A stretch of 64,000 nucleotides of DNA. Origin: Euprymna scolopes. Lineage: Eukaryota. The notes below the pieces were generated by a model. It was given only the letters and a program-made list of their open reading frames with translations. It was not told where the DNA came from and did no database searches. Shown here piece by piece: positions 15,108 through 63,960 of this stretch; the first letter of the stretch is position 1, and the number at the start of each line of letters is the position of its first letter. The translations under genes and the position numbers were made by a program. The stretch lies in the NCBI GenBank assembly GCA_053919585.1, contig CM132806.1; one strand, given 5' to 3'.

Positions 15108-15194
15108 ACGACCTAGACTCCGGTCTCCCTAAGTCAAAGGTCGTATCGTGGTCAAACAAGGCCAATATAACATGATGAAGACTGTGGTGTTCAG

Positions 15195-17390: not shown

Positions 17391-17486
17391 TAATAACAAT
17401 TCATTTATAATTCATATAATCATGTAATTTCCAAATAAAAGAATTCGCAATATTTTTGAAAACGAAACGACAACTGTAACTTGTGC

Positions 17487-21201: not shown

Positions 21202-24200
21202 TAATGTTTTTATAGACTGATAATACTTTTATGGACTGATAATACTTTTATGGACTGATAATGTTTTATGGACGGATAATACTTTTATGGATTTATAATT
21301 CTTTTATGAACTGATAATGTTTTATGGACTGGTTATATTTTAAGGACTCATAATACCTTTATAGACTGATTATAGTGTAAGGACTGATAATTCTTTTATT
21401 GACTGATGCTGTTTATGGACTGATAATACTTTTATTGACTGATGATGTGTATGGACTGTTAATACTTTTATGGATTGATAATATTTTATTGACTGATAAT
21501 CCTTTATGGATTGATAATATTTTTATGGACTGATAATACTGTTATAGACTGATAATACTTTTATGGACTGATAATATTTTTATGGACTGATAATATTTTA
21601 TGGACTGATTTTATTTAAAGGACTGATAATACTTTAAGAGACTTATTATATTTTAAGGACTGATAATACTTTTATAGACTGATAATGTTTTTATGGACTG
21701 ATAATACTTTTATGGACTGATTATACTTTTATATACTGATAATGTATTTATGGACTGATTATATTTTAAGGACTGATAATACTTTTATAAACTGATTATA
21801 TTTTTAGGACTGATAATATTTTATAGACTGATTATATTTTAAGGACTGGTAATACTTGTACGGACTGATTATATTTTAAAGACTGAAAATTCTTTAGACT
21901 GATTCTATTTTAAGGACTAATAATACTTTTATAGACTGATTATATTTTAAGGACTGGTAATATTTTATAGACTGATTATATTTAAAGGACCTATAATACT
22001 TTCCTAGACTGATTATATTTTTTATGGACTGAAAATACTTTTATGGTCTGATAAAGGTTTTATAGACTGATTATGTTTAAAGGACTGATAATACTTGTAT
22101 TGACTGATGATGTTTTACGGACTGATAATACTTTTATGGACTGATAATGTTTTTATGGACTGATAATACTTGTATGGACTGATAATACTTTTATGGACTG
22201 ATAATGTGTTTATGGACTGAATCTATTTAAAGGACTGATAATACTATTATAGACTGATTATATTTTAAGGACTGATAATATTTTTATTGACTAATGATTT
22301 TTTTTTGAGTGATAATACTTTTATGGACTGATAATACTTTTTAGACTAATAATGCTTTTATAGACTGATAATATTTTATTGCTGATAATACTTTCATGAA
22401 CTAATAATACTTTTATGGACTGACAATTTTTTATGAACTGATAATACTTTTATGGACTGATTATACTTTTATGGACTGATAATACTTTTATGGACTGATA
22501 ATATTTTTATTGATGGATAATACATTTATGGACTGATAATACTTTTATAGACTGATAATGTTTTAATGGACTGATATTACTTTTATGGACTGATGATGTT
22601 TTTATGGACTGATAATACTTTTATTGACTGATAATGTTGTTATGGACTTATAATATTTTATGGACTGATAATACTTTTATGAACTAGTAATGTTTTTATG
22701 GATTGATTATATTTTAAGGATTGATGATACTTTTATAAACTGATTATATTTTAAGGACTGATAATACATTTATAGACTGATTATATTTTAAGGACAGATA
22801 ATACTTTTATGGACTGATTATATTTTAAGGACTGATAATACTTTTATAGACTGATTATATTTTAAGGGCTGATAATACCTTTATAGACTGATTATATTTT
22901 AAGGACTGATAATACATTTATAGACTGATTATAATTTAAGGACTGATAATACTGTTATAGACTTATTTTATACTTTCATGGACTGATAATACTTTTATGG
23001 ACTGATAATGTTTTTTGGACTGATTATATTTTAAGGACTAATACCACTTTTATAGACTGATTATATTTTAAGGACTGATAATACTTTTATAGACGGATTA
23101 TATTTTTAGGACTGATAATACTTTTATATACTGATTATATTTTAAGGACTGATAATACTTTTATAGACTGATTATATTTTAAGGACTGATTATACTTTTA
23201 TAGACTGATAATGTTTTTGTGGACTGATAATACTTTTATGGACTGATAATGTTTTTATGGACTGATAATACTATTATGGACTGATAATGTTTTTATGGAC
23301 TGATTATATTTTTGGACTGATAATACTTTAATAGACTGATTATATTTTAAGTACTGATAATACTTTTATGGACAAATTATATTTTAAGGACTGATAATAC
23401 TTTTATAGAGTGATTATATTTTAAGGAATGATAATACTTTGATGGACTGATTATATGTTAAGGACTGATAATACTTTTATAGACTGATTATATTTTAAGG
23501 ACTGATAATACTTTTATAGACTGATTATATTTTAAGACTGATAATACTTTTATAGACTGATAATTTTTTTATGGACTGATTATATTTTTAGGACTGATAA
23601 TACTTTTATAGGCTTATTATATTTTTAGGACTGAAAATACTTTTATAGACTGATTATATTTTCAGGACCGATAATAATTTTATAGACTGAAAATATTTTA
23701 AGGACTGATAATAATTTGATTGACTGATTATATGTTAAGGACTGATAATACTTTTATACACTGATTATATTTTAAGGACTGATAATACTTTTATGGACTG
23801 ATTATATTTTATTGACTGATAATACTTTTATAGACTGATTATATTTTTTGGACTGATAATACTTTTATAGACTGATTATATGTTAAGGACTGATAATACT
23901 TTTATGGACTGATTATATTTTAAGGACTGATAATACTCTTATAGACTGAATGTATTTTAAGGACTGATAATACTTTTATAGACTGATTATATTTTAAGGA
24001 CTGATAATACTTTTATGGACTGATTATTTTTTAAGGACTGATAATACTTTTATAGACTGATTATATTTTAAGGACTGATAATACTTTTATAGACTGATTA
24101 TATTTTAAGGACTGATAATACTTTTATAGACTACTTATATTTTAAGGACTGATAATACTTTTACAGACTTATTTTATTTTTATGGATTGATAATACTTTT

Positions 24201-26455
24201 ATAGACTGATAATGTTTTTATTGACTGATTATATTTTATGGACTGATAATACTTTTATAGACTGATTATATTTTAAGGACTGATAATACTTTTATAGGCT
24301 AATTATATTTTTACGGAATGATAATACTTTTATGGACTGATAATGTTTTTATCGACTGATTATATTTTAAGGACTGATAATACTTTTATAGACTGATTAT
24401 ATTTTAAGGACTGATAATACTTTTATTGTCTGATGATTTTTTATGGACTGATGATATTTTATTGACTGATAATACTTTATAGACTGATAATGTTTTTATG
24501 GACTGATAATACTTTTATGGACTGATAATGTTTTTATGGACTGATTTTATTTTAAGGACTGATAATACTTTTATAGACTAATTATATTTTAAGGACTAAT
24601 AATACTTTTATTGACTGATGATATTTTTTGACTGATAATATTTTATGGACTGATAATACTTTTATAGACTGATAATGCTTTTATAGACTGAAAATACTTT
24701 TATAGACTGATAATGTTTTATGGACTGATAATACTTTTATGGACTGATAATACTTTTATAGACTGATACTATTTTATGGACTGATAATACTTTTCTGGAC
24801 TGATAATGTTTTATGGACTGATAATACTTTTATGGACTGATAATAATTTTATGGACTGATAATACTGTATGGAATGATAATACTTTTATGGACGGATAAT
24901 GTTTTTATGGACTGATAATACTTTTATGGACTGATTATACTTTTATAGACTGATAATGTTTTTATGGACTGTTTATACTTTTATGGACTGATAATGTTTT
25001 TATGGACTGATAATGTTTTTATGGACTGATAATATTTTTAGGACTGATAATACTTTTATGGACTGATAATGTTTTTATGGACTTATTATATTTTTAGGAC
25101 TTATAATACTTTTATAGACTGATTATATTTTAAGGACTGATAATACTTTTATTTACTTATGATGTTTTATGGACTGATAATACTTTTATGGATTGATAAT
25201 ATATTATTGACTGACATTACTTTTAAAGACTGATAATGTTTTTATGAACTGATAATACTTTTATGGACTGATAATACTTTTATGGACTGATAATATTTTT
25301 ATGGACTGATAATACTTTTATGGACTGATAATGTTATTATGGACTGATTATATTTTAAGGACTGATAATACTTTTATAGACTGATTGTATTTTTAGGACT
25401 GATAATACTTTTATAGACTGATAATGTTTTATGGACTGATAATACTTTTATGGACTGATAATACTATTGTGGACTGATAATGTTTTTATGGACTGATAAT
25501 ATTGTTAGACTAATTATATTTTAAGGACTGATAATACTTTTATAGACTAATTATATTTTAAGGACTGATAATAACTTTATAGGCTGATAATATTTTAGGA
25601 CTGATAATACTTTTATAGACTAATAATATTTTAAGGACTGATAATACTTTTATAGACTGATAATATTTTTAGGACTGATAATACTTTTATGGACTGATTA
25701 TATTTTTAGGACTGATAATACTTTTATAGACTGATAATATTTTAAGGACTGATAATACTTTTATAGACTGATTATATTTTAAGGACTGATAATAACTTTA
25801 TAGGCTGATAATATTTTAGGACTGATAATACTTTTATAGACTGATAATATTTTAAGGACTGATAATACTTTTATAGACTGATAATATTTTAAGGACTGAT
25901 AATACTTTTATAGACTGATTATATTTTAAGGACTGATAATAACTTTATAGGCTGATAATATTTTAGGACTGATAATACTTTTATAGACTGATAGTATTTT
26001 AAGGACTGATAATACTTTTATAGACTGATTATATTTTTAGGACTGATAATACTTTTATAGACTGATAATATTTTAAGGACTGATAATACTTTTACAGACT
26101 GATTATATTTTAAGGACTGATAATACTTTTATAGACTGATAATACTTTTATAGACTGATTATATTTTAAGGACTGATAATACTTTTATAGACTGATAATG
26201 TTTTTATGGACTGATAATACTTTTATGGACTGATAATATTTTTATATACTGATAATGTTTTTATGGACTTTTTTTTATTTTAAGGACTGATAATACTTTT
26301 ATAGACTGATTATATTGGTAGGACTGATAATACTTTTATAGACTGATAATGTTTTTTGGACGTATAATACTTTCATGGGCTGATAAGACTTTATGGACTG
26401 ATAAAATATTTAATGACCGATTATATTTTAAGGACTGATAATACTTTTATAGACT
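21202..26455. repeat. Satellite array, block 2 (same 18/19-bp family)
   Basis: Read directly; roughly 280 monomers. Confidence 0.97.
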
Positions 26456-27289
26456 TATAAGCATAATAAATAAAGTAGCTAGACGAACTCTATTTTTCAA
26501 AGCTTATAAAAATCTTTAAACCCTTTGTTAATCTTTTCTCAATCAATTGAAAGTTAATACCTTTGAAAAAACAACACACACATAACAATCTTAAGTGCTA
26601 TGGCGTTCATTGTCTAAATACCTGTGAATACAAGAATAATAAACGTAATTTTTTATAATCCCAAGTTTTTCATCTATCGCCACTCAATGATCTTAGATTA
26701 ATAGAAAGACATGGACTACTGACGCTAGTTTTGATTTAACAATCTGCTAATCTTTATCGTTTCAGGTACGATTGGTGACTTCCATCCTGTGCCCCACAAA
26801 TGTGTGGTAATCAAGCACACTTTAACAACAATATTTGAACTGGTAAACACGTAGAAGTTCCCAGTAAAGTATTTTTCTTGAGGTGTAATACAGTGCTAAA
26901 TCCTATGTACACATGTAGAGCGATTGCACTCTCTACGCAGCGCTTGATAACATTGGACACAATTACGTATTGTCAGAATCACACCCTGAGACCACCAGAG
27001 TTTTAGGGAAGTTAGTTATAATACACAGGTGAATTGGTACGAACTGTATGAAAGCCATTATTTTTCTTGACGTATTTCTTCATTTTCAAAATAAATGCGT
27101 TATTGAGAATTTTAATATGTGATATGATAAATAGCATCTGCTCAATATAATGAAATGTATTTATGCTTATTTTGTATTGAAGTAACTCAGCAGTTTAATC
27201 TAGTTTGAAAATAAAGAAAGTAAACATAAATAATGGTTAAAAATGATTTTGCTGTCACCATTATAATCATAATTGTTTCGCTCTTCATC

Positions 27290-27510: not shown

Positions 27511-27604
27511 GGTGATATTAATAAATAATTTACGCATAGTGATGTGTGTGTGTTTGTGGTGTAACTTACCAGTAACTTATCAGAAATTAAGTGTTCAGTA
27601 CGTG

Positions 27605-28005
27605 CGTTACAGGAAAAAGGGCGGTCCATTCCCATGTAAATAAGAATAACATTAGATACGTGAAAATGAGATTAGGATAAGCTGAGACTCGAACCTTGTA
27701 AGCAAGGTTAAGAAATAGAATGTTAGAAATCGGAATGTGTAAAAATCCTATTGTGAAAGTCTATTATAAATAGTTAGATATTGCTTATATCGTAAAAAGC
27801 ACTGATTGTTCATACTTTTATAAAACTGAATATTGAAAATGTCAGCTAAAAAAATGAACAATACAAATTAAAAATGTATTGTTAAAAAATAGGTTAGGTA
27901 AAAATCGGTCAGTTGAGAATTCATTGTTGTCAAAAGTGTGTAAGGAAAAACGTGTTCGTAGCCACATGAATTGGTCACGTTTTGGAAACATACTTCTGAC
28001 GTCAA
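27605..28005 (+). mobile_element. Truncated LTR, family A (5' half)
   Basis: High similarity to the reverse complement of 58230-58593 (gagattaggataagc..ctcgaac..tgtaagcaa). Confidence 0.75.
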
Positions 28006-28499
28006 GATATGTATCTCTCCTCCTCTCTATATCTGTTATAAGAAATATAAAAAATGTGCTTACATGTCTTCTCTATTCGCTCTACATCTCATCATCATCG
28101 TTATATCCATTATATGTATTGTCCCAATATGAACCCCGTCATCCTTAATACGTACTCTATGCAACACTTGTTAAGTTTTATAAAATAGTGACCCTCACCT
28201 TAAAATAAAAAATATGCAAATTGTTTCGTATAGTTTGTCTAGTATTTTTCTAGTTGTTCATCTGTAACTTAGAGAAATATTTAAACGAAAACTGAGTGTT
28301 AAACTGAGGAAAGGCGTTTAGAGATTTGTGTTGAAGAAATTAATTGTAAAAAACAGTTTTGTAAAGTAAGTCTTAGTGATAGGGTTGCAATTAGTTTTAA
28401 GGAGCAGAAGACATCCCCGGCTCCATCGAATGATCTCCTAAGGTCGTTTACTTTTATCTTAGTTCTTCTTCCATGATGTTTTTGATCATACAATTTTTC

Positions 28500-34176: not shown

Positions 34177-36041
34177 GGGTTTGTATTACTGTACACATAG
34201 ATTCGAATAAGTTGCCAAAAAACAAATATATAACAAATAAATGTTATCAAAGGCAAGATAAATTACTTTTCTACCAAACTGGATATATTTTTCGTGTTTT
34301 TATTCAATTTAACATGTTTATTCAGCTCGAAAAGCATACAGTGTTTACCGATGTATTGAAAAATTCAAGATGGCGGCCGATTCTCTCTTTAACACGGTAA
34401 GTTTGGAAAAAGGTGTAATAAATAAAAAACCGGTTAAAATACTGTTAAAAACTCGCTCAATATATGTTACCGTGACATAGGTTGACATATATTCGGCGGG
34501 TTTTTAATAGTATTTTGTATAGTTTTTTATTTATAACACCTTTTCCCAAACTTACGGTGTTAAAGAATGTGTGAGACGCCATCTTGAATTTTCCAACACA
34601 TCGGTAAACACTATATTCTTTTCGCGCTGAATAAACATGTTAAATTGAATAAAAACACGAAAAATATATCCAGTTTTTATCGGTTTTTTACCTTCTCTGC
34701 AGAAGTACAAAAAAACGGAAGGTACTTTTACAGAATGTTAAACTATTCTTTCGAAGAAATTTAGCAAGAATACCTGTAAACCAGGAAATCGGTAAAATGT
34801 CATCATGGATGAATACTTGTCTATTATAATTTCTACCCTTGACAAAAACTTAGCCATAACAAAAAAGATTTATTGTTCAGATTGTTTTTGAGATTGATTT
34901 CTAAAAAGATATTTTATAAATAAAATCGACTTTAAAATTAAAGACTTAAATTACAATAATTGAATTTAAACATTCTTATTTCAATATTTGGCACATAACA
35001 CCTGCAAAAATGATCACAATGTCAGGATTTCATTTTATTTCAGAATCGATGGCAAATTGTGTAGATTGATATCTCATTATATTAAATACTAATATTTAAC
35101 ATTAGTTTATCATTTAAGCCGATAAAAAGCCCCCTTTTTTTTTTCGAGTCATAAAAGGATTTGGAGTTTCCTAATCAACCTTTCGGGTGCAGTTGCACGC
35201 TCTCAAAATAACTAAAGTGTTGGATTTAAAAAAATTGGTTCATTAAAACTAAACAGGTTTAGTTTAAAAAAAAAAAAAATAAATTTTTTAAATCGCTTTG
35301 GTAATTAGATATGTCGTATGGTTATCCCTAATCGCTGAATAAAACCGCTAACGAGTTGAATGATTACGACATAAAATTAAACTCGGGTTCCTGAAACGGA
35401 AACTTCGTTTGTTTTTGTTTTTTTCTTATCAATATATTTACATTGTTATTTTGTTTTCATTTTCAATCATTCGAACAGTTTTCTTTTTCAAGTAATCCAA
35501 GTTACAAAATTCCCACTGTTTACTATGCTAAAATCACAATGACTAATGTATACCTATTAACCCTTATCCTTGAGTGACACCCATGTAAAAAAAAAAAATC
35601 ACTCGAACAGTTTTCTTTTTATAATGTACAGTTTTAAAAGTTTAAAAACGATATAGTTTTTACTTCAGGAAAATTAATGGGTCAGTTTTTACGATGTGCC
35701 CTGTTAAAATACTGTTAAAAACTCGCTCAATATATGTTACCGTGACATAGGTTGACATATATTCGGCGGGTTTTTAATAGTATTTTGTATAGTTTTTTAT
35801 TTATAACACCTTTTCCCAAACTTACGGTGTTAAAGAGGGTGTGAGACGCCATCTTGAATTTTCCAACACATCGGTAAACACTGTATGTTTTTCGAGCTGA
35901 ATAAATATATTACATTGAATAAAAACACAAAAAATATATCCAGTTAGGTAGAAAAGTAACTTATCTTGCCTTTGATAACATTTATTTATATATTTGTTTT
36001 TGACTATTTTTTCGAATCTATGTGTACAGTAATACAAACCC
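34177..36041. mobile_element. Foldback element: ~290-bp inverted arms with a duplicated centre and right arm
   Basis: 34276-34676 is a ~400-bp hairpin; 34433-34676 is directly repeated at 35703-35945; 34177-34430 is the inverted copy of ~35790-36041 (mirrored ORFs 34158-34400 + and 35822-36058 -). Confidence 0.9.
35489..35598 (+). mobile_element. Tiny 5'-truncated CR1/L2-like 3' end with polyA and ~22-bp target-site duplication
   Basis: taacccttatccttgagtg..tgtaaaaaaaa matches 13780-13840; flanked by tca(t/c)tcgaacagttttcttttt at ~35467 and ~35599. Confidence 0.7.
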
Positions 36042-39239: not shown

Positions 39240-41450
39240 AAGGTGAAAGTGTCCTGATGTTCACCACGAGGGGGTTAAGCTGCGAGTGGGCTCTTTTCCC
39301 GGTAGCAGAAATTTCTAGCTTATATAGGGTTTGACGGGTCCATATTATCATGACTATAGGGGTGTCAACTACTCAGAACACTTCCCTCCGAAGATTTATT
39401 TCCCCGGAATATAATTTTTATTTCTCGGGGTTACCTCCACGGGGTCCGTCCGTTAACTTTTTCTGCCGGAACGACATATATCGCTACTAGTTTGAGGGTG
39501 TTTTTTTATGCGAGCAATGTGGTCTTCCTACCATGTAGACTATACGACCGATCATGTTCTTGATTGATTATTGGTCCAAAAGAGTATTATTATCTTTGTG
39601 CATCTGGAAGAATATTTTCTCTCCCGGCACGTAATTTTTCTTGGGAGCAGTTGTCTTTGTGGGTTTTTCTTTTTTTGGCAATATATTTTCAAAGACTGGA
39701 CGTATTTTTCTCGTAGACACATCACTTCTGCCGGATATATCTGGGATGGTGCATGTTCGTTAGGCGACATGCAATACACCTGAAGAAATTGTTTCAATCC
39801 TTTTTCGGATGGAGTGTTATTTGCCTTCTTCAAAGCCCTCTTCAAAGGTGTCCACAAATCTTTTAGCCTGTCCGTTTGACCTGAGGTTGTTAGTCAGAGT
39901 TGTGATGTGATCGACTTGGAAGTCCTCCATGAACTCTTAAAGCCCCTGGATGTAAACTGAGTGCCGTTATCTGACACTAAACAGTCGTCCACTCTGAATT
40001 TGCGAATAACTCATGAAGAGTTTTTTTTTTTATATTTATAACTCAGTAGTTGGGGTTTGCACCTAAAGACTTAAGGTCACTTAGAGAAGCTGCCAACTAT
40101 TATAAGGTAGTACTATCCATGAAGTGGTCCCGCTTAGTCCGTGTGTGTCCCTGGTGATTGAATTGATAGTGCTTTACCATCCTCTGCATACTTTCACGTT
40201 TTCTTCAATATCGTTATCCATGTTTTTTCTAACGTATGAATGCATGAAACTTTTCATTCTGGTAATGCCAGGGCGTCTTGTGTGAAAATCATTTAGGATT
40301 TTCTTTTGACAAGTTTACTCTTTCCCTATATAATAATACATACTTGCTTGTTAGAAAACCTCTGCTGCTTTTCATCAGTTTGCAGTTTTCTCTTCGTTTC
40401 TATTATAAAATCGGTTCTCCATATTCTAGGCATAGATAACGGGGTAACTCAGGTTTGTTTTGGGATTTTTCTCATGTTTGGCTTTCGCTTGCTGTTTGGT
40501 GAGTAAGATTTTTTATACTTTGTACCTTTCTAATGTCTTCTACACCTTCCTCTTCTATATATTTGGAGTTTTGGTTCTCAGAGATGATTGTTTGGCATTC
40601 CTCATCCAATTGTTTAAGGGTTATGTTTTGTTCGATCTCCAATCTGTAAAGTTTCCGGTGCATGAGTTCAATGTCGTTTGTCGACACTAAGCCTTGAATA
40701 GATATCAGGATTTAAAGTTGTCGGTCCTCAATGACGATAGTTCGACGTTGTCACAATCTCCATTTACGACTAAAGAAAAGGTGGTGTAATCATGGTTTTC
40801 TTTGCGAGTCAGGTCAATATATCTCTTTTATGAAATAAACTGATTTTTAGAGAGTATAATTCCATCAAAGATTTCATTTCTCGTCAAAGGACAATTCACT
40901 CGTCTTTTTAAGGATGATGTAGTTAAAGAACTGATTATGCTCTACAGCTCTCAATTTTTGTAATAAAAGACGAAACATCAGCTGCTCGTCCCATGACTTG
41001 CAATCAATACTGCATTCGTCACCAAATCTGGCAAAATAGGTTTCAAATATCCAATCCTCTTGAGGACGATAGTGAAATCATTCTAATGCTGACCAATTCG
41101 CGGTTTATGAAAAAAAAAACAGTTTGCTCTGATTCATTTCTCTATAAATTTAGTTAATTGTTCCAATTTTTTTTCTTTGCCTGTAACTGTATTTTCAGTA
41201 TTTTTCGCTGAATTTCCTTCTTTCCCTTTCTTTTCTTTTCTTCTTCTTCTTCTTCTTCTTCTCTTCTTCTTCTTCTCTTTCCACTTCTTTTTCTCTTCTT
41301 CTCTTTTTCTTTTTCCTGCTTCTGTTTCTCTTTTTCTTTTCTTTATCTTTCTTCTTCTTTTCTTTCTCTTTTTCTTCATTCTTTTCTCTTCGAAACTGTA
41401 ATTCCAAACTCATTATGCTGTAAGTGTATCATTGCAACTAGTTACCTTGA
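39240..41450 (-). mobile_element. Internally deleted Gypsy LTR retrotransposon (gag and integrase remnants)
   Basis: K/E-rich gag-like N-terminus from 41413; HHCC ILNDFHTRRPGITRMKS...VKVCRG; core LVSDNGTQFTS and RSNGQAKRFVDTF.KRALKK; no recognisable RT. Confidence 0.8.
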
Positions 41451-47649: not shown

Positions 47650-49000
47650 TAAGCGTATTAGTATTTAGATAAGTGGGCATTACTAGGAATTAAAACGGGA
47701 AACTTAATGAATCATAAATATGGAACTTTAAACCAAAAGGAGATTGAGGCGCTCAGTAAACATGACGCTTACACCTAATGGTACTAGAAGCATACACTCT
47801 GAAATCTAAAGGATTGAAAGAGAAAATTAACAAAGGGCACCTGCAAAGCACAAGGAAACTCTTCGAAACTATACACTAGAAATTAAATAATAGGAATAAA
47901 CACTGGGGCAGTATCGCTAATAAAGTACCCTGGACCTTTAATAGGCTGCAATACAGAAGGACTTTACCACTTTGATCAAAAGTAATGCCAAAGCACAATG
48001 GTTTATATCTGAGAGACGAACTTGACCGACTCTATGTGAAAACAAAATAGGCAAAAGGAGGCCGATAAACGTGGAAGACAGTGTAGAAAGTACAAAAAAG
48101 ATTTCGGAAATTACACAATCAGAAACATTAAGATATATCACCGCAGCGAGTGACTCCATCAAGAAAAACAATACAGAAAACGACCAAACCAGAAACAAAA
48201 ACAACAAAAGAAAAATGGAAATAGAAAGAGATTCACTAACGATTCGTCAGAATAACAAAAGAAGAAACTCGTGAAAGCACCTAGATTTAGCTAAGAAAAT
48301 TACAAATAAAGAAGGAATCAGAATCACTATTGCCAGTCAAACGAAAGTAGGGTCAGCCACTTTATATCTAAATTAGATAAAATACAGGAAAACAGTAAAT
48401 ATACGCTCCGTGGACAAGGATACGTAACAATGAACCCCATAATAAGTGAATGCAGTAAACTATCCCCAATAGAATATAAAACAGACACAGCTGTTTAGAA
48501 AAGGAAGTGCATTGGAAGTTCTGTCACGACTATATCTCGAATATACAGACAAAAGGTTAAAACAAAATCCGGTGACAGTACACGAATAAAAACCCACAAA
48601 ATCCCTTTGAGGCATGAAGATACAAGTAGACAAATTCCTCCAAGCAAGCGGCTTAGACAGCATAATAATGAAAAAAAAGGAAAGTAACTGCCAAGTTGAA
48701 GATTTTCCGCCCCAGCAACTACAGAGTGAAAATCAACAAGTCAGAATATAGTCAAATAAATAAGAGAAAATTGCCTCAAACTGAAATGAAATATGAAACA
48801 TGAAGAAAATCAATATAATACTAATAATTGTCGAAGCACAATGGATAAATAATCAAAAAAAGAGAAAGGCGAAAACGGAGACTGAGTCTATGAAACGGAT
48901 AGTAATGCATAAAACAACTGACATTTTAAGGAAAACTTGAGGGAAGAAAAAATCTACAAGAGCCACAAACGCCAACCGGAATTATAGAATACTAGAAGTA
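47650..49000 (+). mobile_element. Decayed RLE-type LINE (R4/Dong/NeSL-like)
   Basis: Collinear with the reverse complement of 58740-59940 (INT.AV..I.Y and DF.xPxxxRVK motifs). Confidence 0.6.
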
Positions 49001-49599
49001 GGAATAAAAATGTTGCAATATAGAAAACTGAAACGACAAAATTGTAAATTTACTCCCCTAAATGTAAGCATTGAGTGACACTACAAGAAATAGTCGCTCA
49101 ACGTCCATGTGGCGATACGCCATGCTAGGGGTGAACGTGATTAAAAACAGTACAACTTAACCGGCTAGGGAGTAAAGTGCCTTCCAGCAAATTAGTTTCT
49201 ACAATTTTAAAGTTCTCGAAGATAAAGTCACATGGAGATTAATAAACCTGAGAATAAAATTCTAAATCATTAGTTTATACAGTGACTGTGTTAAGATTAC
49301 TAATAGAATAAAATCAGACATAACCAAACAAAGCAAGTACTACATTATTCACGTATACGTATAAGTATTTTTTATTTTATCTATTAAATGAAATCGGGTA
49401 GATTTTTTTCAGGTCAGAAAAAGAAAGAGAAAGCTTACCCCAATTACCAGTAAATGACTTGATTCGAAGAAATTAGGAACTCACGATATTTAGAAAATTC
49501 ATAACAGTATACTAAATATCAACAATAACTCCAATAGCCATTAGGTAGTGCGCATAGTCCCCGAGAAGGTTAATATGCTTTCCCGATGGTTCGCCTTTA

Positions 49600-51170
49600 A
49601 CTCCTTCTTAGACTCAACGAAGCACTTTCTCCCAAATTTCCCTTTGTGGACAAAAGCTAAACTGAAAATCATACATTCTCATGTTCATATAATCAAAAGT
49701 CTGGACATTGCGAAGACTTCTGAGCATGACCTCACCCCTGATATACTATTAAAATATGCTCCTCTGTTGAGGTTACCTTCGTTCTCTCTAAATTCTCCAA
49801 CAAACATCTTACCGAATCTTGCTTCCCCGACTGCCGGAAAATTGCTTCTGTTTTTTTTTTCATAAATTAAACGACATTAGCCTCCTTCCCCGTATCGCCA
49901 GAATTTTTTAGTCCTTAATCAATCAAACACTAGTTCACCATCTTATAGATTATAAACTTCTTTCCTACCGAGAATATGAATTTGGACATGCATATTCTAC
50001 TAAAGATATTCAAACTCTAATCTCTGAACATATATACACGTCACTAGATGAGCAGAAGATGATAAGACAGTAGCAATAGATATATCTTCACAGCATTTGA
50101 TAAGTTCTGGCACAAAGTTCTTCACGGCATTACTGAACGAATACTTTACATAATCAAATTATTCTTAAACAAAACATCCAGGTTGTTCTTGATGATCGTA
50201 CGCTAACAAAACATATAATATAAATGTGGATGTGTTATGTGAGTCGAGGTTTGGATCTTTATTATTACTGATATTCATAAAATACCTCTCTGATAAAATT
50301 GTATACAAGATGGATATATTTGCTGATGACTCTACACAGATACGAGGGAGAAATGAATGTACACATATCTAAAAGATGGCTGTAACTATAAAGAAAGATC
50401 TTGTCTATCGTGGAATGGCGACTTAAATGGATTTAACATCTAATGTTACTAAGTTTCTTCTCTAAACCCTAACCCTAACACCCTCTCAACTGCTGATTGG
50501 CATATCTAATAATTCGCTCCATAATATCGCTTCACTCAAACTCCTTGTCCTAATATTCACATGCAATATGCGGTGAGAAGAAATTCACTGAGATCACTGA
50601 TGTGGAAAACAGGGATCTCTCTACCGTACTAGAAAATTACTGACACTCGGAAGTATCCTTTATCTCAGCAAAGCAATAATTCCGTCGTGCATGAGATAAT
50701 GTTGCCTCAGCTGAGCTGATACATCTGTCACTAGTCTCTCGCTTTTAGACTTGGCCAAAAAATGACCGATCTAATAGGCCCTGCAATATCAACCAAAGTC
50801 CAACCTCTGTTCTCTCGTTGAGAGTATGCATCCTTGTGCCTGTTTTACAAGTTATTTGTTAAGGTAAAAAACTGAAAACACTCGCACTCCTTCACCGTAA
50901 ATACTCCCGCTTAACCAGTCAAACACGAAACCTCTACACATAAACTGTAGAAATTCCTAAATGCTAGAAATCCTTATACTCTAATGGGCCCTTTTCCTCT
51001 AATTTATAGATTTGGGAATTTTCTTCCGGTGATTTGCTTCCTTGATTGTACTGACATGCAGAAGTTGAAGTGCAACAACCATCTCGCTGCATCATTCTCT
51101 TCATGATAATCTGGTTTTAAATATTAGCGCTTTATGTCCTAGTAGCAGTGTTCTACATAAACAGGTTGTT
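49600..51170 (+). mobile_element. Decayed CR1/L2-like LINE RT and 3' end
   Basis: AIDIS..AFDKFWHK, IFADDST, GSLYRTRKLLT..SILYL; parallels 60320-61170. Confidence 0.75.
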
Positions 51171-52460: not shown

Positions 52461-53109
52461 CAATATTGGGGGGGATTAGTGTTTGAGTGCTTGGATTTTG
52501 AAGATCACTTAAAAAATTCTAAATTTTTTTGCAACCCCCATATAAGGTATATCATACACTTTCTTGCTGATCTAGTCGAAAAATAAATTGTTACCTCTCC
52601 TTACGCCATTAATCGAACTCTCTTAACACCGACATACACATCATTACGTTTGCTGTCCAAAACAGAATTTTCTTCGTGTAGGCATTTATTTATTGATCCT
52701 CTGCTAGACAGATTATTGTTTATGTATGCTTGAATAATGTTTCATCATTATTTACATACTAGGAACAGTCACACAGGCTTTCATTAAAGATTTCTCTTTT
52801 TGACAATAAATTGTGATACTTTCTGGAGTCTGAGCCACAACAAGTATCCCCATATTTTTAGTACTCTCTGTCTCTTTCGATAATCGTCGCAGAGAAAATG
52901 TGCGTTACCGCAATAGGCGCTTACCAATGATTCTTCATTGAGAGCGACCACTGATTATCTCTGAAATTTGGGTGGCAATAAGCCTCCCCCATATCTCAGT
53001 ATCTTTCGGAGGTCTGGCTAGTGTTTTCTCACCTCGGCTTTTCAATCTTTTTTTATCATTCCATATTTTTTATTATACGGTGAAGAACAAAGTGTCCCAC
53101 GTACATAAG

Positions 53110-54212
53110 TACAGTCCTAGATGGTTCCGATTTTGAAACAGCAAAGAAAAGTCAGTAGCGTGGTTGTGATCACTTATACGATGACGGAGTTTATGCGTGA
53201 TTCCTGTTATCCCTTGCTTCAACAATGGTCCGTATGATAAACAGCAACAAAAAAATAAAAAAATTGAAAATTAAAAAATATTGGAGACCAATAAATGAAC
53301 TACTCAAAGTCTTCAGAAAAATATGAGTGCTGCAGTTCACAGTATAGACCGGCGTTATGTGTGCTGTCCCTTTTCCTGTTTCGTTTGTTATTAGAATCAC
53401 AAGTTCTGAATGCAATGATTAAAAAAAAACGCCAGTCTTAATTCTTGTTTTCAGAAAGATTAATAACTAAAGAAAATTCTGATTAAACTATTTTCTATTT
53501 TACAGCTATATAAAATTCTATGTGATTTCCCTAAACAACGCAGTGTGTGTGAATAGTTCGCGCAGAAAAAAAAAAACGTCTGTGACGACCGATTGTCTCT
53601 CTCTTCTCTCTTCTCCTTCTTTCGGTCAATGAGTGAGGGGTGTAGTCTGAGTGTTGAGGAGGTCAGACTCAACTCAATTCAACTCTTAACTGGCAAAATC
53701 CCCTTTCTGTACATTTCCTTATAGTAAGATACGCAGTAATTCTTGACGAGGTTCGAATTTTTATGCACAGAGTCCAAACTGAATCACCCCTGAGAATATT
53801 AATTAAGTACATTTCCATAATAGGTTTCCCACACCGGCCATATCTAAAATCTTGATCTCGAGTTCATATCCGCCCTGGAAAACACTCAAGTTTAGACAAA
53901 ACAATCTTACTACTACTATACGTTATGCAAACGTTCCCTTTAAAAATATACTTATGAATTATTATTACCTCTTCTTAACAAGCAAAGCTGAATTTATTTT
54001 TATTTCTTTTCAGTTTGCGTCACTAACTAAACAATATGAATCAGCAAGGCAACAGATGATTGCCCGGGATTGCTTACATAATAAAAAGCTCAACTTTAGT
54101 TCTGATTTAAACATTACTCATGTAATTTTTGACCATCACAGGCGGTTGAGTCAGATTCACCATCTCTGCCTATCCTACTTCCAAAAGTAAACGGATGAGT
54201 CTAACCCGTCAA
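53110..54212 (-). mobile_element. 3' LTR (family B) of env-bearing element, copy 2, with candidate PPT at 54217-54226
   Basis: Minus-strand CTATAAG followed ~25 nt later by CCAGTT (TATA/initiator-like); purine tract GAGAGAGAAA precedes it; similar to 15195-16087 and to 56221-56775 plus 58594-58740. Confidence 0.6.
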
Positions 54213-54916
54213 TATGTTTCTCTCTCGTAACTGACCCATCCTTATTTAGCATGGTAGCTTATTTAATCACTGACAGACAATGTACAAGCATACCTCAGCG
54301 CTTAGCAGCGTCAGCAATATGCACAGGGTATTTCTTCGACTATCAGTCAACCTACAAAAGAATCAAAGTTCATGCAAGGTGCACGAATCGTGCAAAAGTT
54401 CGTATATGCCTATACAAGAAAATATTATATAAGTATTCTGGTCTAGTCTCTTATTAAATCAAACATTCATTTCTAATTACACGCTTTCTACATAGTTTTT
54501 CTTTTTGACATTATCTCCCTTTGGACCATTGTCTGATATGCGGTTAAACGTTAAGTTCAATAATAGTTCGTCCAAAAGTTCCTACAATACAATTATTCAA
54601 TTCATGTCTCGGCAAAAGCGCATGCAACCAGTCTCTTAATATATTTATCGATTATATCCCCTTGGCCCGTTGTCTCTTACAGGGTCAAACTTTTTTTTTT
54701 CAGTGCAGCTCTTCCAGTTCAGTTTCCGGCACAAAAATACAATCATCCTATGTAGGGACGACCATTCGCTTTTTTATGATTCTATTATGTTTTGGAATTA
54801 TCCCACGGTAGTTCTACTGGGGTAAAAGTTCACATAGGGTAATCTCTCGATTGATTCTCTTGTAAAAGAAAACTAAAAATTAAAGCCAATTTTATATATT
54901 TCGTTAGTTCATCTCC

Positions 54917-56100
54917 TCAATTGTTGGTATTCATGGGGTGTTCTTTTACTTGAGTGGCACCGAAGCCTGCATCCGCTCTTGTTCGGGTCATCTCGGTTTT
55001 AGGTGTGTTCTGACGAGGACTGTCTTCGCCGTCGGAGCAGGAAACCTCAAAACGTTTCACACTGTCGGCCCTTTCCTCTCGTTTTCTTAAAAACCAGATT
55101 ACCGCTACCAACATCGTAATCAGAACCGTTATCATGTTAATCATATTTTATGCGACTGTTATCCTCTAGGAGAATACTTTTTCCTCATTAACATCCATAC
55201 CTTCTATCCTAGTCCGCAATTCTCTCATATTCACTCTATTCCTTTGCGTTAACATTTCAAGAAATTCGAATTTTTGATGGACACTCTCAAGACCACCGGT
55301 CTGACACCTGTCAAGCTCTTATCAGCTAACTGGCATAACCATATCGCTAGCCAGGTTGTGCTATACATTTCAGCTCTACCCAGTAACTTGCGTCCGATCT
55401 CGCTTAGGTGTGGCCAGAGGGGTGGGGACACATCCAATAGTGATTTACTATCGTCCAGTCTGGCCCAAATTTCGAGGACTTCAGTTCACGTCTAGAGTTC
55501 TTTTCTCCGGACCAGTCAGTCTTAAACGTTCAGGTTATGTTAGCCGTATCTTGTCTAGCATCTTTCGCAACTGTTCGAGGCTTATAAGTAAGTGTCCTAA
55601 CTCCACGCTGTTTAACTTCCCCCTTATACGTTCAGTCCACATAACTCAGGACTGTTCATTCGACGTTATCTAGCTCAACACATGCAACTCGTGGAAGCAT
55701 TCCTGCAACAATAGTTTTTTTTTCTGGATCTTTATTTTCTTATTATCCCTTCACACAGAATCTGCATCTGGCAAATTATAGTATTAACACTTTCTCGGTT
55801 TTTTTTTTGTAACTCAAAGCTTCGCAATATCCAACAACGAGAACCTCCTATGCGTGCTAATCAACTGGTGCTTTACCTCAATAAACTTGTCCATTGTTAC
55901 GTCGCAACTATCGCTCAATTTCTTATGGGGTTCTAATTTTAATATGTCCACTTTTCTCATGTGTTTGAAGCTTAATATCTAAACATTAAGAATGAGAGTT
56001 TTAGAGCTAACTTCGTTTGTTTATATTAATTGCCTACTGACTACACGCTGAGTGAAAACATCTTAAATACTAGATTGATCGCTAGTGACATCGCCATTAC
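54917..56100 (-). pseudogene. env: env / baculovirus-F-like fusion protein remnant, copy 2
   Basis: Signal-like MIGCVMAMSLAINLVF; FSLLDIAKL*VTK/NRESVNTIICQMQIL (aligns to the copy 1 heptad region); LNSVELGHLLISLEQLRKMLDKIRLT*PERLRL (~GxLxPxLISPxxLxxxLxxIxxxLP); TM MITVLITMLVAVIWFL and tail TPKTEMTRTRADAG. Confidence 0.7.
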
Positions 56101-56775
56101 GCACCCTATCATAAAACTTGAAACGCAACTCTAGCAGTGTAGTTTGATCGATGCCCCCCCCTCGGCGAGTGTAGATTATTACGCCCAAGACCTTTAACCA
56201 CCGGCCATTGCATGCGTTCTCGTTAGCGTGTAGATGTATCTCTTCACTCAGAGTTCAAGTGCGAGGGAGTGATCATAAAACCTTTTCTTTGAAAGAATTA
56301 TTAAACTTCAGGAAACAGCTCAATATCAATTAATTCCGAATTGTTCAAAACATAACAGAATTCACTAAAAACCAAAATGTCAAAATCAAGGTAACGTTGC
56401 GAATCTTCGGTGATAATTCTATTTCAATTTACCTCGATTTGATAGACGGAGTCAAATCAAAATCTGACAACGACGTTTTGGTTTTCCTTCTCTTTTTCCT
56501 TTTTTTCTATTTTAGGCAAGCTGGTTTCTCTTTCCTTTTCTTGTTTTTGTTCAGATTAATTATTTCCAAAATATTGATTAAATTATTTTCTATTTTACAG
56601 ATATATAAAAATATATGAGATTTTCATTTTTTTTTTCAATAACTTAGCGTTCGTGAACAGTTCATTCAAAATAAAAAAAAAAATTGTCACAACTGATTTT
56701 CTCTGTTTCTCTCTTCTCCCTCCCCCTTTTCTTTCGGTCAGTGAGCGGGGGTTTAGCGTGAGTAAGTGGCGGTAT

Positions 56776-56957
56776 TGTTGTGTAGTGATATTTCATATTA
56801 AAGGAGAGACGGGGACATATATTGGGAAAACACAGATAAAGGATATAACGATAGTGATGATGAGGGAGAGAGTGACATTTATACAGTTCTGGGACGCTTG
56901 GGACTTCATATAGATACGGAATGGGGATATATACATTTGTTGCATAGGGGGCCGTAT

Positions 56958-57013
<56 letters not shown>

Positions 57014-58593
57014 TCGTGACATTCATATTGATGAGGGGAAGATACATGTATACAAATATTACAGAGGCGGAGAAAAGAGAGAATACATTTATACCTTTTA
57101 CTGTTCTGTGGATTTTCCTTCTTTTAACATATATTAGAGTTTGGAGAGATTGATCAGTTCTTTAACACCGGAGAGGACAGTCATTACTTAGATGGAGAGG
57201 GGACACGTTTTTAGATGGGGAGGGGGGCACATTACTTAGATGAGTTATACACAAAGTTCATTATAAAGATGAGTGGGAACAATGCTCATATAAATTATTT
57301 CACATTACATTCAATTTGGCAGAAAGGCGACACGAAGACGGCAGTTAGTAAAATATGAGATGTTCTATTTGACCGGTCAAAATGATGATCACATCCAGGA
57401 ATTCAAAGTTGTTTCTACATGATTAACACTTTCCGCTACGTTTCTAAATAGGGCATCATCTGATTCGATCCGGACTCGATTCGACTCTAGCTCCTATATT
57501 GCGAATTCATTTCCGCCATGACGTCATACGTGCGACCAAAAATGTGATCGACTCACGTGACCTGAACATGCGTGGTTCGCCATTGTTTCCAAACCATTTC
57601 TGCAGACAAAAAATTTTTACTAACCTATTTTTCGACCTAACTTATTTTTCAATATGTTTTTAATTTGCAATTTTCGTAAGATGACCTTATTTTAATTAAG
57701 TTTTCATAAAAAGAATTGAACAATAAAAATGCTTTTTACTACAACATATCTGAACTATGTCATGTTAACTGAACGATGCTAAATTCCATCTCTGAATCAA
57801 TTTCTGAACCTTGCTTACAAGGTTCGAATCTCGGTCTATCCTAATCTCACTTTTACTTATCTAATGTTTTTCTTACTTACAAGAAAATGGCTGTTTTCTT
57901 GTAACACAAGTTCTTTACACAGAGGAGAGGAAATACATAATTTCATGGTCATTACAAGATGATTAACAGATTATCTTTTGAGTGTTAAAAGATGACACAT
58001 GGCAACAGTAACAAACCCCAATGATTATTCTTTATTCATTGGACCACTCGAAGGCTGATGACGTCAGAGAATTCAAATTTGAGATTTACATATTTTAATG
58101 TTCTTTATTTCGCTTCCAAAAGACTGACTCCAACTCAACCGAAATCAACTTCTCTCAACTCTACTCTTCTTTTGACTCCCCTAACTGACTCTGTAACTAA
58201 CTATAACTCCTATATTGAGAATCACCCTTTGTCTATGACGTCAGAAGTGTGTTTGGCAAACGTGACCAATTCACGTGGCTATGTATATTTTTCCAAATAC
58301 ACTTTTAACATCAAAAGAATTCTCAACATATACGTTTAACCTATTTTTAACAAGTTATTTTTAATTTGTATTGTTCATTCTTTAGCTAACAATTTAAATA
58401 TTCAGTTTTCTAAAAGAATGAACAATAAACAATATCTAACTATTTTAATCGAATTTAACAAAAGACTAATTTCTAACATTCCAATTCTTAACATTGCTTA
58501 CAAATGTTCGAGTTCCGGCTTATCCTAATCTCATTTTCACCTATCTAATGCTCTTCTTATTTACATGGAAGTGACCAGCCTTTCCTTGTAGCA
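56776..58593 (-). mobile_element. Long family-A LTR (TG...CA, GTAT duplication) containing a second family-A LTR
   Basis: GTAT at 56772-56775 and 58594-58597; family-A sequence at 57950-58593; (AG)n at 56959-57009. Confidence 0.6.
57259..57906 (-). mobile_element. Nested solo LTR, family A
   Basis: Minus strand starts TGTTAC; flanked by aaagtt and caagtt (6-bp duplication with one mismatch). Confidence 0.7.
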
Positions 58594-58739
58594 GTATGAC
58601 TATACTCAATTCAACCCTCCAACTGTCAACTAGCAAAACCCCTCCTAGCACAACTTATAGTAAGAAAACGGGGATAGTTTGGACAAGGTTTTAGTTTCAT
58701 TCAGCCAATCCACCTTCATAGCGTAAAAAAGTGAATTCG

Positions 58740-59940
58740 CCCTGATAGGCTGCACCAGATGTGTATTATCTTCTCTCCATGAGGTGTATTACTCTCCGGA
58801 TTCAAGGAGTTTCCTCAATAATCAGCTGTTTTCATTGTTCTCATTCGCTCTATCTTTCCAGCCATATTTCCGATTTTAATTTCTCCCATTCTTTTTTCAA
58901 AGTTTTTCGAGATTGTTCCTAGTGATCCTACTGTTATAGATATTATCTTTAGTTTCTTCATCATCCATATTCCTTCCAGCTATCGGGCTAGCTCTGTGTA
59001 TTTGCTCAGTTTCTCCTTTTCTTTTATATTCACCCTGTGATCAGCTGGAACAGCAAAGTCTACGATTTGACAAGACTTTTCGTTTTTTGTTAATTATTAC
59101 AATATCCGGTCTTCTTGCTTGGATAGGCTTGTCTTTGTATGCCCATGTGCCATGAGATTTTGTGATTGTCGTTTTCAAGTGCAGTTGCTAGCTTATGTTT
59201 GTACCATTTGTCTGTGAGTTCGAGATGTAGTTGTTTGCATAATTCCCAATGTACTGTACTTCCCACTTGGTCGTGCCTATTCTTGTATTCCTTTTGGAAT
59301 AGTTTGCTGCATTCGCTTATTATATGGTTTATCGTTTCGTCCCTTTGTCAAGAGAGTGCCTTTGCTGTTTTCGTGTGTTTTGTCTATCTTTTTTTTATGT
59401 AATTGGTTCTTATCGAACTATCTTGTGCTACAGCAATTAAGGAATCAGTTTCTCGGTTTACGTGTCCTTTCTCCATCCATGCCCAGTGTTTTCGTTATTA
59501 TCGTGTTTTGTCATCTTTATGAATCTTCCATGTAGTTGTTTCTCTTTCCATTTTCTTTTCTCGTAACATTTTTTGTCTCTGTGTGTTCTGTTTTTTGGAT
59601 TGTTTCCCTGTCTCCCGCTGCTATAAGTATCCTTTCAGTGTTCTGCCTCATGTATTAAAAAAAAAGTTTTTATCGTTCACACAGCCTTTTATACTAACGG
59701 CCGTCTTTCCTTTACACGTTGAGTCGGTCAACATCGTCCTTTGGATGCAGTGCATTATTCATGGTAAAGATTTTCGAGCTGTTTCAATTCTTCTTTAGTC
59801 CCCCGTATGAACGGTTCAGAATATCTTACTAATGATACTGCCCATATATTTATACATTTTATTAGGTTTCTGCTATATAATACAGTTTCTAGGTGTTTTC
59901 TTGTTTTCTGAAGTATTCTTTTCCAATCCTTTCTCTTATA
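58740..59940 (-). mobile_element. RLE-type LINE 3' part (R4/Dong/NeSL-like)
   Basis: RRPDIVIINKK..SCQIVDFAVPADHRVNIKEKEKLSKYTELA...ITVGSLGTI is a PD..D restriction-like endonuclease region. Confidence 0.8.
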
Positions 59941-59944
59941 TTTT

Positions 59945-61180
59945 TACATTTTTTTTATTACATTTTCACCCCAAACAAGGCAAATAGTCACTTTGCTGTA
60001 GGGGGCTACTATCAGGGGCAAAATCTACCGGGTACTATGTAGGGTTTTGGGAAGCAAGATGTCGGTTCATGTTACACTTGAACTTCTGCATGTCAGTACT
60101 GTTGGGGAAGCAGGGACCTGGAATGGAATTCCAGAGTCTAGCGGTTCTGGGGAAGAAACTATTGGAGTAGAAAGATCTTTTACATCTAGGGATCTCTTCA
60201 GTGTGGGGGTGGGATTAAGCAGCCTGTCGAGTTTGTCGATGGTGCTCACGTTGTGGGGGCACGAGTGATTGCAGTTCGTCAGAGCATTCATCACTAAAAT
60301 ACTTGTAGATGGGACAGAGGCTAAAGCTTAGATGCCAGTTCAGAGCCTATCAGATTTACGACTCTCTTTGGAACCTTGTCAAGGAGAGAGAGACTAGTAG
60401 CAGATACACAAGCCCAAATGTGACAGCAATACTCCATACATTGACGAATGGTGGCCTTATAGAGGAACAGGATACTTTCGGGTGTTAGTAGATTTCTAGC
60501 ACGGTAGAGAGAGCCAACCTTTCTTGCAGCGGCCCTAGCAATGCCTTCAACGTAATTGTTCCAACTCATATTTCCTGTGAAAGTTAGGCCAAGGAGTCTG
60601 AAAGATGTACTCTCAGATAAAGAGTCGTTCGCCATTTCTATATGTGGTAGATAGGGTTTCTTGTAGTTATTGAATGAAACTAATTTAGTCTTGGCGGCAT
60701 TGAACGTGACCCACCATTTTGGTCCCCATTCCACTACTGACCGGAGGTCTTCCTCTAGTGCTTCTGCCATTTCTTTAGAAGTATGTTTATTCGTCTTCCT
60801 GCCGTGCCTGCCCTAGAATTTAGAGTCATCAGCATATATACCCATCCCAGAGGCAATTTTGTCGGGGAGATCATTTATGAATATCAGGAACAATATAGGT
60901 CCAAGGATAGACCCCTGGGGCACTCCCGCATTTATATCATATTGTTTAGACCGTCTAGGACAACTGGATTTTTCTCTTATCTAAGAAGGATTTAATTATG
61001 TTAAGTATTCTACCAGTGATACCGTATGATCTAATTTTCCTGAGGAGACCCTCATGCCATACTCTGTCAAAAGCCTTAGATATATCTAGAGCTCCCGCTC
61101 TGCCCTCCATCGCTTTGTCCAGTGAATGGTATATGGTACATACGTTCAGTTGCATTGATGTCGCGTACGTCATATACCAA
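59945..61180 (-). mobile_element. CR1/L2-like LINE, 5'-truncated RT and 3' end (best preserved copy)
   Basis: ALDISKAFDRVWHEGLL, GVPQGSILGPILFL, YADDS, FNAAKTK, CMEYCCHIW, SRLWNSIP; frameshifted. Confidence 0.92.
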
Positions 61181-61779: not shown

Positions 61780-62776
61780 TAAAAAAAGAGACGTGCAACG
61801 AAGGAAGAGACGAAAATTGCTTAGCATTAAAGAGACAAGAAGTGGTTACGACGAAGGAAAATACATAGTTAACATGAAAGAGACGAGACGTAGTTAGCAC
61901 GGAAGAGATGATAATATATTACCCGGAAACAGACGAGAAGTGGTTAGCATGAAAAGGGGGAAACGTTTCTAGCATGCATGAACATTATATGGTTAGCATT
62001 TTGGTTGGTCATTTTTGTTTTACGGTATATCAACCCTGTTCAGATTATTTAATTCCGAATCCAAAGATTCGGAAGAAAAACATTTTAACGGAATATATTT
62101 GTTGTTTTCAAGTCGGTTTCTATTTAACTCATAGTTGTGAGTCTAACAGATACTACCACTCCGGGTCAGAGCGGACGTGGGAGCAATGGCAATTAATGGG
62201 TGGCTCCACACTCCCCAAAGCCCGCGAGCTGGGGCCTCACCACTGGATATAGTTTAAGGTAATACCCAGGGCCGTGGTTACCATGAAATAGACGAGTCAT
62301 TACTCGCACGAAAGAGATAAGGCATTGTAAGCGCAATAAAAACGAGATGTTGTTAGCAGGAAAGAGACAAAATGTGGTTAGCTCGAAAGTGAAGACCTAG
62401 TAAGCACGAAGGAAACGAGACGTGTTTACCACGAAACATGAAATTTATTAGCACAAAAGAGACGAGACGTGGTTAGCAAAAACAGATGAGGCGTTGTTAG
62501 CATGGAAGATCCGAAACGTTCGTAGCACGTAAAAGACAGGATGTGATTAGCAGAAAAGGGGCAAGATGTAATTGATGCGAAAGAGACAAGATATTATTAG
62601 AACGAAAAAAAACAAGATATGGTTGGCACGAAAGTAACACAATGTAATTAGCACGAAAGGCAAAATGTGGTTAGCACGGACGAGAGGATATTTGTTACCA
62701 TGGAAGAGACGAGATGTGATTAGCATGAAAGGGATGAGACGTGATTAGCACGAAAGGAAAACGTTGTGTTTTACAT
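61780..62776. repeat. Degenerate 24-25-bp minisatellite (gagacgagacgtggttagcacgaaa), interrupted at ~61990-62275
   Basis: ttagca recurs every 24-25 bp. Confidence 0.85.
61995..62272 (-). mobile_element. SINE-like insertion
   Basis: GC-richer unique block (actaccactccgggtcagag..gggagcaatggcaat) interrupting the minisatellite; resembles invertebrate SINE bodies from recollection, not searched. Confidence 0.5.
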
Positions 62777-63629: not shown

Positions 63630-63960
63630 TTTAGCGTAGTCTAACCCGAATAGTTTCTGCTTAACTGTGTAGTGAAGTATAGCTTTTTGCTTAACCGAGT
63701 AGTGTAGGTTGGTTGTGTGTTTGGCTGTGTAGTGTAGGTTGGCTGTGTCGTGTAGTGTGTGCTCGCTGCGTGCTTAGCCGAGTAGCGTGGACGAGATCCG
63801 TGCTTAGCCATGTAGTGTAAATTAGTTGTGTACTTAGCCGCGTAGTGTGAGCTAGCTGTGTGCTTAGCCGAGTAGTGTTGGCTTGCTGCTTGCTCAGCCA
63901 TGTAGTGTGGGTTATCTGAGTCTAGCCATGTAGTGTGAGCTAGTTGTGTCTAACTGTCTA
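63630..63960. repeat. 30-bp minisatellite (tagtgtgagctagctgtgtgcttagccgag)
   Basis: Read directly; gives the 10-aa periodic ORF 63641-63901. Confidence 0.85.

Follow-up and report, generated by a model that had tools for sequence, protein, structure and literature searches.

A 64-kb stretch of contig CM132806.1 from Euprymna scolopes (analyzed at its full length of 64,000 nucleotides and called the window below) carries, from 53108 to ~58745 on the minus strand, two diverged direct repeats around a broken membrane-protein open reading frame (ORF). The account that we favor, and to which we give an even chance, takes this locus for a decayed member of an old multi-copy family of errantivirus-like long terminal repeat (LTR) elements, in which only a broken, likely F-type env remnant is left, gag-pol having been lost through DNA-level deletion or recombination private to this copy, which is possibly a chimera. 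The layout given in a preliminary description of the window, direct repeats around a broken minus-strand membrane ORF, is partly confirmed, and its interpretation is partly supported, in that an LTR-type element with an env-like remnant and without gag-pol is borne out at this locus; the copy is inert today as far as its sequence tells. The window is AT-rich, rich in microsatellites and holds a 9-kb satellite, a makeup that we read as that of an animal genome. What can be said of the family comes from a second copy within the window and from one alignment of contigs (query 54900–56460, 80% likeness threshold, one DNA run, X1), whose summed depth is only a rough proxy for copy number.

Terminal Repeats

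The preliminary description bounded the element by two strongly diverged direct repeats. A twin relation is demonstrable over only ~350 bp (53442–53795 against 56538–56775 plus 58594–58745): 53442–53652 pairs with 56538–56763 at 70.7% (blastn, E 2e-24; score 186 against a shuffle maximum of 42), and 53667–53760 pairs with 58604–58697 (score 60 against a shuffle maximum of 30). The divergence is as strong as had been described, the two pieces agreeing in 78% and 74% of aligned columns (Kimura two-parameter distance, K2P, 0.26 and 0.32), and the repeat pair is, judged by these distances, old. Because the two left pieces find their matches on either side of ~56776–58593, the right repeat is split by an insert there, for which no target-site duplication of more than 5 bases was found. 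The two repeats are similar in length (left 688 bp, right 707 bp). The best-kept words of the twin block (53468–53520 and 56564–56612) are TATA-like on both strands and also resemble a splice acceptor on the plus strand; another such look-alike, with its end at 54013, is not kept in the second copy.

Outside the twin block the repeats could not be paired. The left repeat is collinear with the second copy over 15205–16527 (69% over 1183 columns), and its outer block, 53108–53441, matches the second copy at 15193–15530 with z 10–16 against shuffles. Against its positional counterpart in the right repeat, 56205–56537, the same block reaches z 2–3 (one of six controls reached 1.9); 11–50 of 536 real decoys score equally in seven of eight schemes and 368 in the eighth, and the matches per 100 bases are those of an unrelated control. 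A two-copy profile likewise did not find this counterpart. Furthermore, the inner ~410 bp of the left repeat (53800–54212) have no partner on the right side, and the right outer end of the element is lost at ~58745, at the edge of a fragment that we take, from its translation, to be LINE (long interspersed nuclear element)-like. LTRs of one insertion are identical at the start, and the non-matching outer blocks therefore point to a chimera, a later replacement or uneven decay. We considered a split-repeat tyrosine-recombinase element (PAT/Ngaro, or DIRS/Ngaro-like) and rejected it: neither outer block matches 53800–54900 on the same strand, so that the inner copy of a terminal block was not found.

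A purine run lies just outside a CA boundary at 54211, with a like run at the homologous 16341–16363 of the second copy. Other purine runs also occur nearby, and this candidate polypurine tract (PPT) is weak alone; its place beside the same CA boundary in both copies supports a minus-strand element with a 1.1-kb 3′ LTR. At the other end of the interior, where no clean primer-binding site (PBS) had been described, we found a gapped TGG word at 56207–56198. By eye, it agrees with 10 of 12 letters of a tRNA-Leu end given in supplement 1 of PMC13524379 (publications are cited here for their accessible parts). We regard it as a weak PBS, because the 10-mer recurs, within one mismatch, at two further places in the window.

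The Minus-Strand ORF

Between the repeats, the main minus frame holds 20 stops in 448 codons. Stops are not significantly scarce over the ORF zone as a whole, 39 of 300 shuffles having as few; a significant scarcity is confined to the anchor-tail zone, where 8 of 300 do. The transmembrane segment and tail of the preliminary description are borne out: the predicted anchor, 55144–55088, has a KD19 of 2.45, a value reached by 0.16% of 1848 stop-free control 19-mers, and it is followed by 56 codons without a stop. The GHL..ISLEQLRKML words reported earlier are also present in the sequence. The signal-like N-terminus was not confirmed, since the hydrophobic stretch at 56109 and the anchor are in different frames, nor was the heptad region, whose periodicity is not significant in any of four segments (P 0.05–0.77). 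No RX[KR]R cleavage motif occurs in the main frame, in which decay could hide a furin site. Little can be read from the acceptor-like sites at 56048 and 55979, since such sites turn up about twice per kb anyway.

The ORF is without a database match. Pfam returned only two weak unrelated rows from six frames of both copies and no family from the minus frames of 53800–56541; phmmer against 1.84 billion proteins gave none at E 0.001 and PDB sequences none at E 10; and word-index protein searches scored none of 1594 and none of 72 candidates. A single-sequence fold has a mean pLDDT (predicted local distance difference test) of 35. Four peptide words are absent from seven text supplements of PMC13524379, whose bait sequences lie outside the supplements, and we found no related loci in viral or metagenome contigs. 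An Rfam search of 52800–59000 and ARAGORN each gave no match. In two polyA runs there were no reads at the locus, with ~12% of each sampled and no positive control, which makes this no test of transcription.

The absence of gag-pol between the repeats, also described earlier, stands. Besides the empty Pfam result, a tblastx search whose queries were 66 pieces taken from upstream of natural env genes detected no pol remnant within the element; the same search did match an integrase-like piece near 9500 that is unrelated. Such scraps, belonging to other LTR elements, lie at ~9400–10100 (plus strand) and at 39500–39970 (minus strand, by eye from the translation).

Comparison of the two window copies gives 0.32/0.29/0.35 across codon positions, with no third-position skew, and 6 synonymous codons against 4.8 expected (P 0.34). 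No codon-position selection on the env-like ORF is thus apparent between them.

Likeness to F-Type Envelopes

Natural F-type env genes were gathered by a fusion-peptide motif, giving 15 viral and 105 metagenome loci, and Pfam Baculo_F was confirmed on both of the two loci tested. The F profile covers the 190 residues after the cleavage site and was built from 32 metagenome sequences or from all 46 distinct ones. With these, the GHL block (55615–55514) scores 3.8 and 4.7 bits, above all 492 real decoy frames and all 300 shuffles, and it falls at profile positions 134–167, the GxL motif sitting 129–132 after cleavage in eight sequences. Its rank is somewhat flattered, as the profile region was picked after a first weak match. 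In the reverse test, 9 of 36 loci, which are related to one another, have the block's best match where it is expected, against 0–3 for 25 shuffles. Profile positions 1–20, the fusion peptide, found no match in either copy, and profiles of the parts before the cleavage site and after GxL gave nothing above decoys. The preliminary description had related the ORF to F-type Env. On the evidence of this one block and of the layout, an F-type origin of the ORF is likely, in spite of the blank Pfam, phmmer and PDB searches.

If so, the protein is short. From GHL block to anchor it spans 151 codons, compared with 307–317, including 6–8 cysteines, in eight insect Env-F.

A full-length insect profile was set aside because its match to the anchor was outranked by microsatellite frames. 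In the metagenome contigs themselves the fusion-peptide motif of F-type proteins occurs in ~290 stretches, many of which lie within long, open frames that are env-like, and these contigs are a ready source of errantivirus env diversity.

Other Copies and the Junction

Eighty-one contigs align to 54900–56460, 56 of them less than 90% alike. With a single-copy depth of 16.5, the summed depth peaks at 186–235 in four bins of the ORF. At the best places of the env core, 13–17 other contigs share the same differing base, which argues for private decay of this copy within an old family. Other-copy equivalents average 5.8 over the env core, 0.19 over 55854–56224 and 1.3 over 56225–56460 (56225–56383 is covered by about two other contigs), and at 55854–55959 and 56066–56171 this locus stands alone among the contigs. 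Among the 15 listed of 18 joints between contig blocks, 14 link blocks that are collinear within the ORF, one lies in the right repeat and none crosses the junction. The short spacing itself occurs elsewhere. Two contigs, tied to joints by what their depth and end coordinate suggest, have room for no more than 38 and 87 bases beyond those of this locus between their anchor-side and GHL-side blocks, and the GHL-to-anchor span would therefore be short in at least two other copies.

The second copy lies in the same orientation and begins with TG at 15195; 15205–16884 is collinear with 53120–55284 at 68–69%. The next upstream block, 16971–17037, matches 55769–55842 with a score that none of 200 shuffles and none of 436 real controls reaches, from which it follows that this copy is without ~400 bp of the ORF. 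Upstream of that, 55850–56230 found no match when compared with 17040–17490 (score 22; 181 of 200 shuffles as high). The copy is cut off by a satellite of ~9 kb (17487–26460), which starts just inside it and consists of ~240 copies of a 37-bp unit with 18/19-bp halves. No right repeat was found beyond the satellite; a candidate at 27058–27250 is a chance match, real controls scoring higher. A look-alike of a cleavage site with fusion peptide near 17100, seen by eye, was dropped, as profile and position test gave it no backing. The short repeat family of the insert that splits the right repeat stands twice in tandem within 56776–58593 and is found inverted at 27591–28130 and 14501–14921, near both ends of the second copy.

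A Stop-Poor Antisense Frame

Antisense to the env-like ORF, one plus-strand frame is poor in stops. Over 53800–55500, a span chosen after the scarcity was seen, it has 12 against a shuffle mean of 22.9, a count as low being reached by 1 of 1000 shuffles and by none of 38 real decoys. Over the aligned 53801–54420 no other reading has so few stops, in either copy (2 and 5 in 168 codons). In the second copy alone it is not significant (82 of 1000), and synonymous changes are not enriched. A word-index protein search scored none of 213 candidates, and a 127-codon stretch found no usable match in the ESM Atlas. The frame may be an antisense gene or may be due to chance.

Table 1. Coordinates of the element, its parts and the second copy in the window
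Feature	Position	Strand	Remark
Left repeat, read as 3′ LTR	53108–54211	−	Inner limit taken from the PPT-like run
Outer block of left repeat, presumably U5-like by position	53108–53441	−	Matches second copy, not right repeat
Twin block of left repeat	53442–53795	−	TATA-like words near 53500–53515
PPT-like purine run	54214–54229	−	11/13 purines
Stop-poor frame antisense to env, candidate second ORF	53807–55495	+	12 stops in one frame over 53800–55500
Broken env-like ORF remnant, multi-copy core	54917–55850	−	Frame breaks near 55810, 55515 and 55320; homologous pieces in second copy
Predicted membrane anchor	55088–55144	−	Followed by basic patch and tail to stop at 54917–54919
GHL block, one stretch like F-type envelopes	55514–55615	−	
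Junction zone, leader/env core	55851–56197	−	Hydrophobic stretch 56109–56065, in a frame other than the anchor's
PBS-like word, tRNA-Leu type, 2-base gap	56198–56207	−	
Inner block of right repeat	56221–56537	−	Length and position as left outer block, but not alignable with it
Twin block of right repeat, first piece	56538–56775	−	
Later insert	56776–58593		Microsatellite and two related short repeats
Twin block of right repeat, second piece	58594–58745	−	Stops at LINE-like fragment
Second, diverged family copy	15195–17037	−	Left repeat, 3′ region, anchor and tail, one upstream block

Origin of the Locus

On the favored account, the family would descend from a Ty3/gypsy errantivirus-like ancestor with gag and pol as well as env-F, and its lineage would have shortened env, to ~151 codons from GHL block to anchor, while it continued to spread. 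A deletion after insertion, or recombination between two subfamily copies, would then have joined a 5′ LTR and PBS to an env remnant and a 3′ LTR; the short-repeat insert would have split the 5′ LTR later, and the presumably LINE-like fragment would have replaced its outer end. With such an event, private to this copy, the lack of gag-pol, the single-copy state of the junction and the LTR blocks without a match would be accounted for. Deletions are common in the family, since the second copy has its own internal loss of 400 bp. The wear of env-F in errantivirus lineages, as described in the accessible part of PMC12992720, agrees with an env that is short in several copies, with the absence of selection and with the second copy's additional deletion.

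Several observations pull the other way. Depth falls to single-copy level also in short bins of the ORF (55271–55323), and the contigs are short, which makes the gap at the junction weak evidence; a small extra depth at 55960–56065 and 56172–56460 indicates that parts of the upstream zone exist elsewhere. No copy with gag-pol beside this env was seen, and a helper or parent is presumed. The PBS-like word stands directly after the inner LTR edge and the hydrophobic stretch begins less than 100 bases on, as in a tidy short element. Finally, the F-type origin hangs on a single block: in the reverse test three other pieces of the ORF scored 0 of 36 each, and a baculovirus-only F profile found no match.

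Some of these observations would suit a non-autonomous short LTR family with a shortened env-like gene, and perhaps an antisense gene too, copied in trans by a gag-pol helper. The short ectodomain is common to at least three copies, PBS-like and PPT-like sites bracket a 2-kb interior without a pol trace, the antisense frame is poor in stops, and TelKA2n of a rotifer offers a partial precedent (PMC5408684, accessible part). We nevertheless consider such a family possible but well short of an even chance, as the junction zone, which all its members should share, is nearly single-copy here (0.19 against 5.8 other-copy equivalents), the second copy departs from this locus upstream of 55850, the LTRs do not pair as twins in their outer blocks and neither ORF bears a sign of selection. 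In its boldest form, this would be an old animal family of ~3.5-kb LTR elements without gag and pol, spread by a helper to dozens of copies, with, as its only cargo, a compact F-derived membrane protein that lacks ~155 residues of cysteine-bearing ectodomain and an overlapping antisense gene that belongs to no known family; as a satellite it may have supplied or blocked the envelope function of its helper. We hold that form to be doubtful.

The preliminary description proposed, as one of two alternatives, a copy of a spliced env RNA; such a message would have been packaged by a full-length virus, reverse transcribed and integrated. Drosophila errantiviruses produce env from an RNA that is spliced to a leader exon (PMC12992720, accessible part), and the order here, LTR, PBS-like site, short leader, env, PPT-like site and LTR, agrees with this. 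A single reverse transcription would give identical LTRs, yet 330 bp of them do not align. Moreover, a whole env exon would be expected, with the ~260 codons before the GHL block that insect Env-F needs (the commonest open stretch before the cleavage site is 123–146 codons in insect loci, plus ~130 to the GxL motif), and only ~200 fit between the PBS-like site and the GHL block; the main frame is also without a cleavage motif. We therefore hold the proposal to be unsupported and very unlikely.

It is also conceivable that the ORF is no env remnant, being instead a captured host or accessory membrane protein or the shadow of the antisense frame, or that the repeats are not LTRs. The blank searches of Pfam, of 1.84 billion proteins, of PDB sequences and by word index would then be explained, as would the low fold confidence (35) and the minus frame that is not significantly stop-poor while the plus frame is. 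Set against these are the GHL block, which in two tests ranks above every decoy and at the proper profile position, the strong C-terminal anchor with its tail, the TG start and the PPT-like and PBS-like sites; the split-repeat, DIRS/Ngaro-like layout was not found. We regard this reading as unlikely, and a decayed errantivirus-like copy that lost gag-pol at the DNA level as the better account of the locus.

Other Repeats in the Window

Two repeat families are each present in several copies, one at 58746–60000 and 48160–48680, the other at 60030–61090, 10830–12360 and 49560–51080; both are presumably LINE-like fragments. A palindromic element of ~400 bp with 85% arms (34177–34676) has a partial inverted copy 1.2 kb off (35700–36041) and resembles a miniature inverted-repeat transposable element. 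Diverged tandem arrays with 25-bp and 30-bp units lie at 61800–62760 and 63630–63950, beside an assembly gap.

Comparison with Known Systems

If the favored account holds, the locus is one more worn relic of an env-bearing retroelement, from a family without a detected relative in the databases searched. If, on the other hand, the short form is family-wide, we would have here a satellite element of invertebrates in which an envelope-derived gene is kept and everything else borrowed, and with it a natural test of what makes elements unable to replicate alone keep or trim env. In the literature searched, which most subscription papers lie outside, we found no description of a strictly env-only invertebrate family, and did find env-keeping non-autonomous elements and counts of bare LTR-env-LTR loci. 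Indeed, a table for cattle gives 82 LTR-env-LTR among 1532 gene-bearing elements (PMC3879100, accessible part), and by these counts the bare layout is common among decayed elements. The decayed cattle endogenous retroviruses of this class share the layout of our locus; unlike it, they are vertebrate retroviruses.

TelKA2n, a non-autonomous LTR family of the rotifer Adineta vaga, has, according to the part of PMC5408684 drawn on, kept env and lost pol and needs a helper, in which it is like the element described here; in TelKA2n a part of gag and pol remains, and env was amplified whole, whereas the env here is broken and no junction common to several copies was found. The sORF2 of MDG1-group retrotransposons (PMC11952523, accessible part) similarly has a membrane segment followed by a basic patch and a tail. 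It is a short stand-alone ORF in gag-pol elements, whereas here the copies stay homologous far upstream of the anchor.

The closest parallels are with errantiviruses. In the accessible part of PMC12992720, Drosophila errantivirus lineages repeatedly wore down env-F and kept gag-pol, fragments of env remaining before the 3′ LTR. Our locus resembles these retroelement revertants in its shortened env remnant, apparently family-wide, which lies between the place of pol and the 3′ LTR, and in showing no sign of selection, and differs from them in having no gag-pol. Its span from GxL to anchor is about half that of the insect Env-F loci measured. Compared with the F-type env Ty3/gypsy errantiviruses of metazoans (PMC13524379, accessible part), no gag or pol and no cleavage site or fusion peptide were found here; like them, the element is flanked by what we read as LTRs, has a 3′ env-like ORF with a C-terminal anchor and a GHL block that fits the F profile, and carries a PBS-like word of the tRNA-Leu type, priming by tRNA-Leu being common among them.

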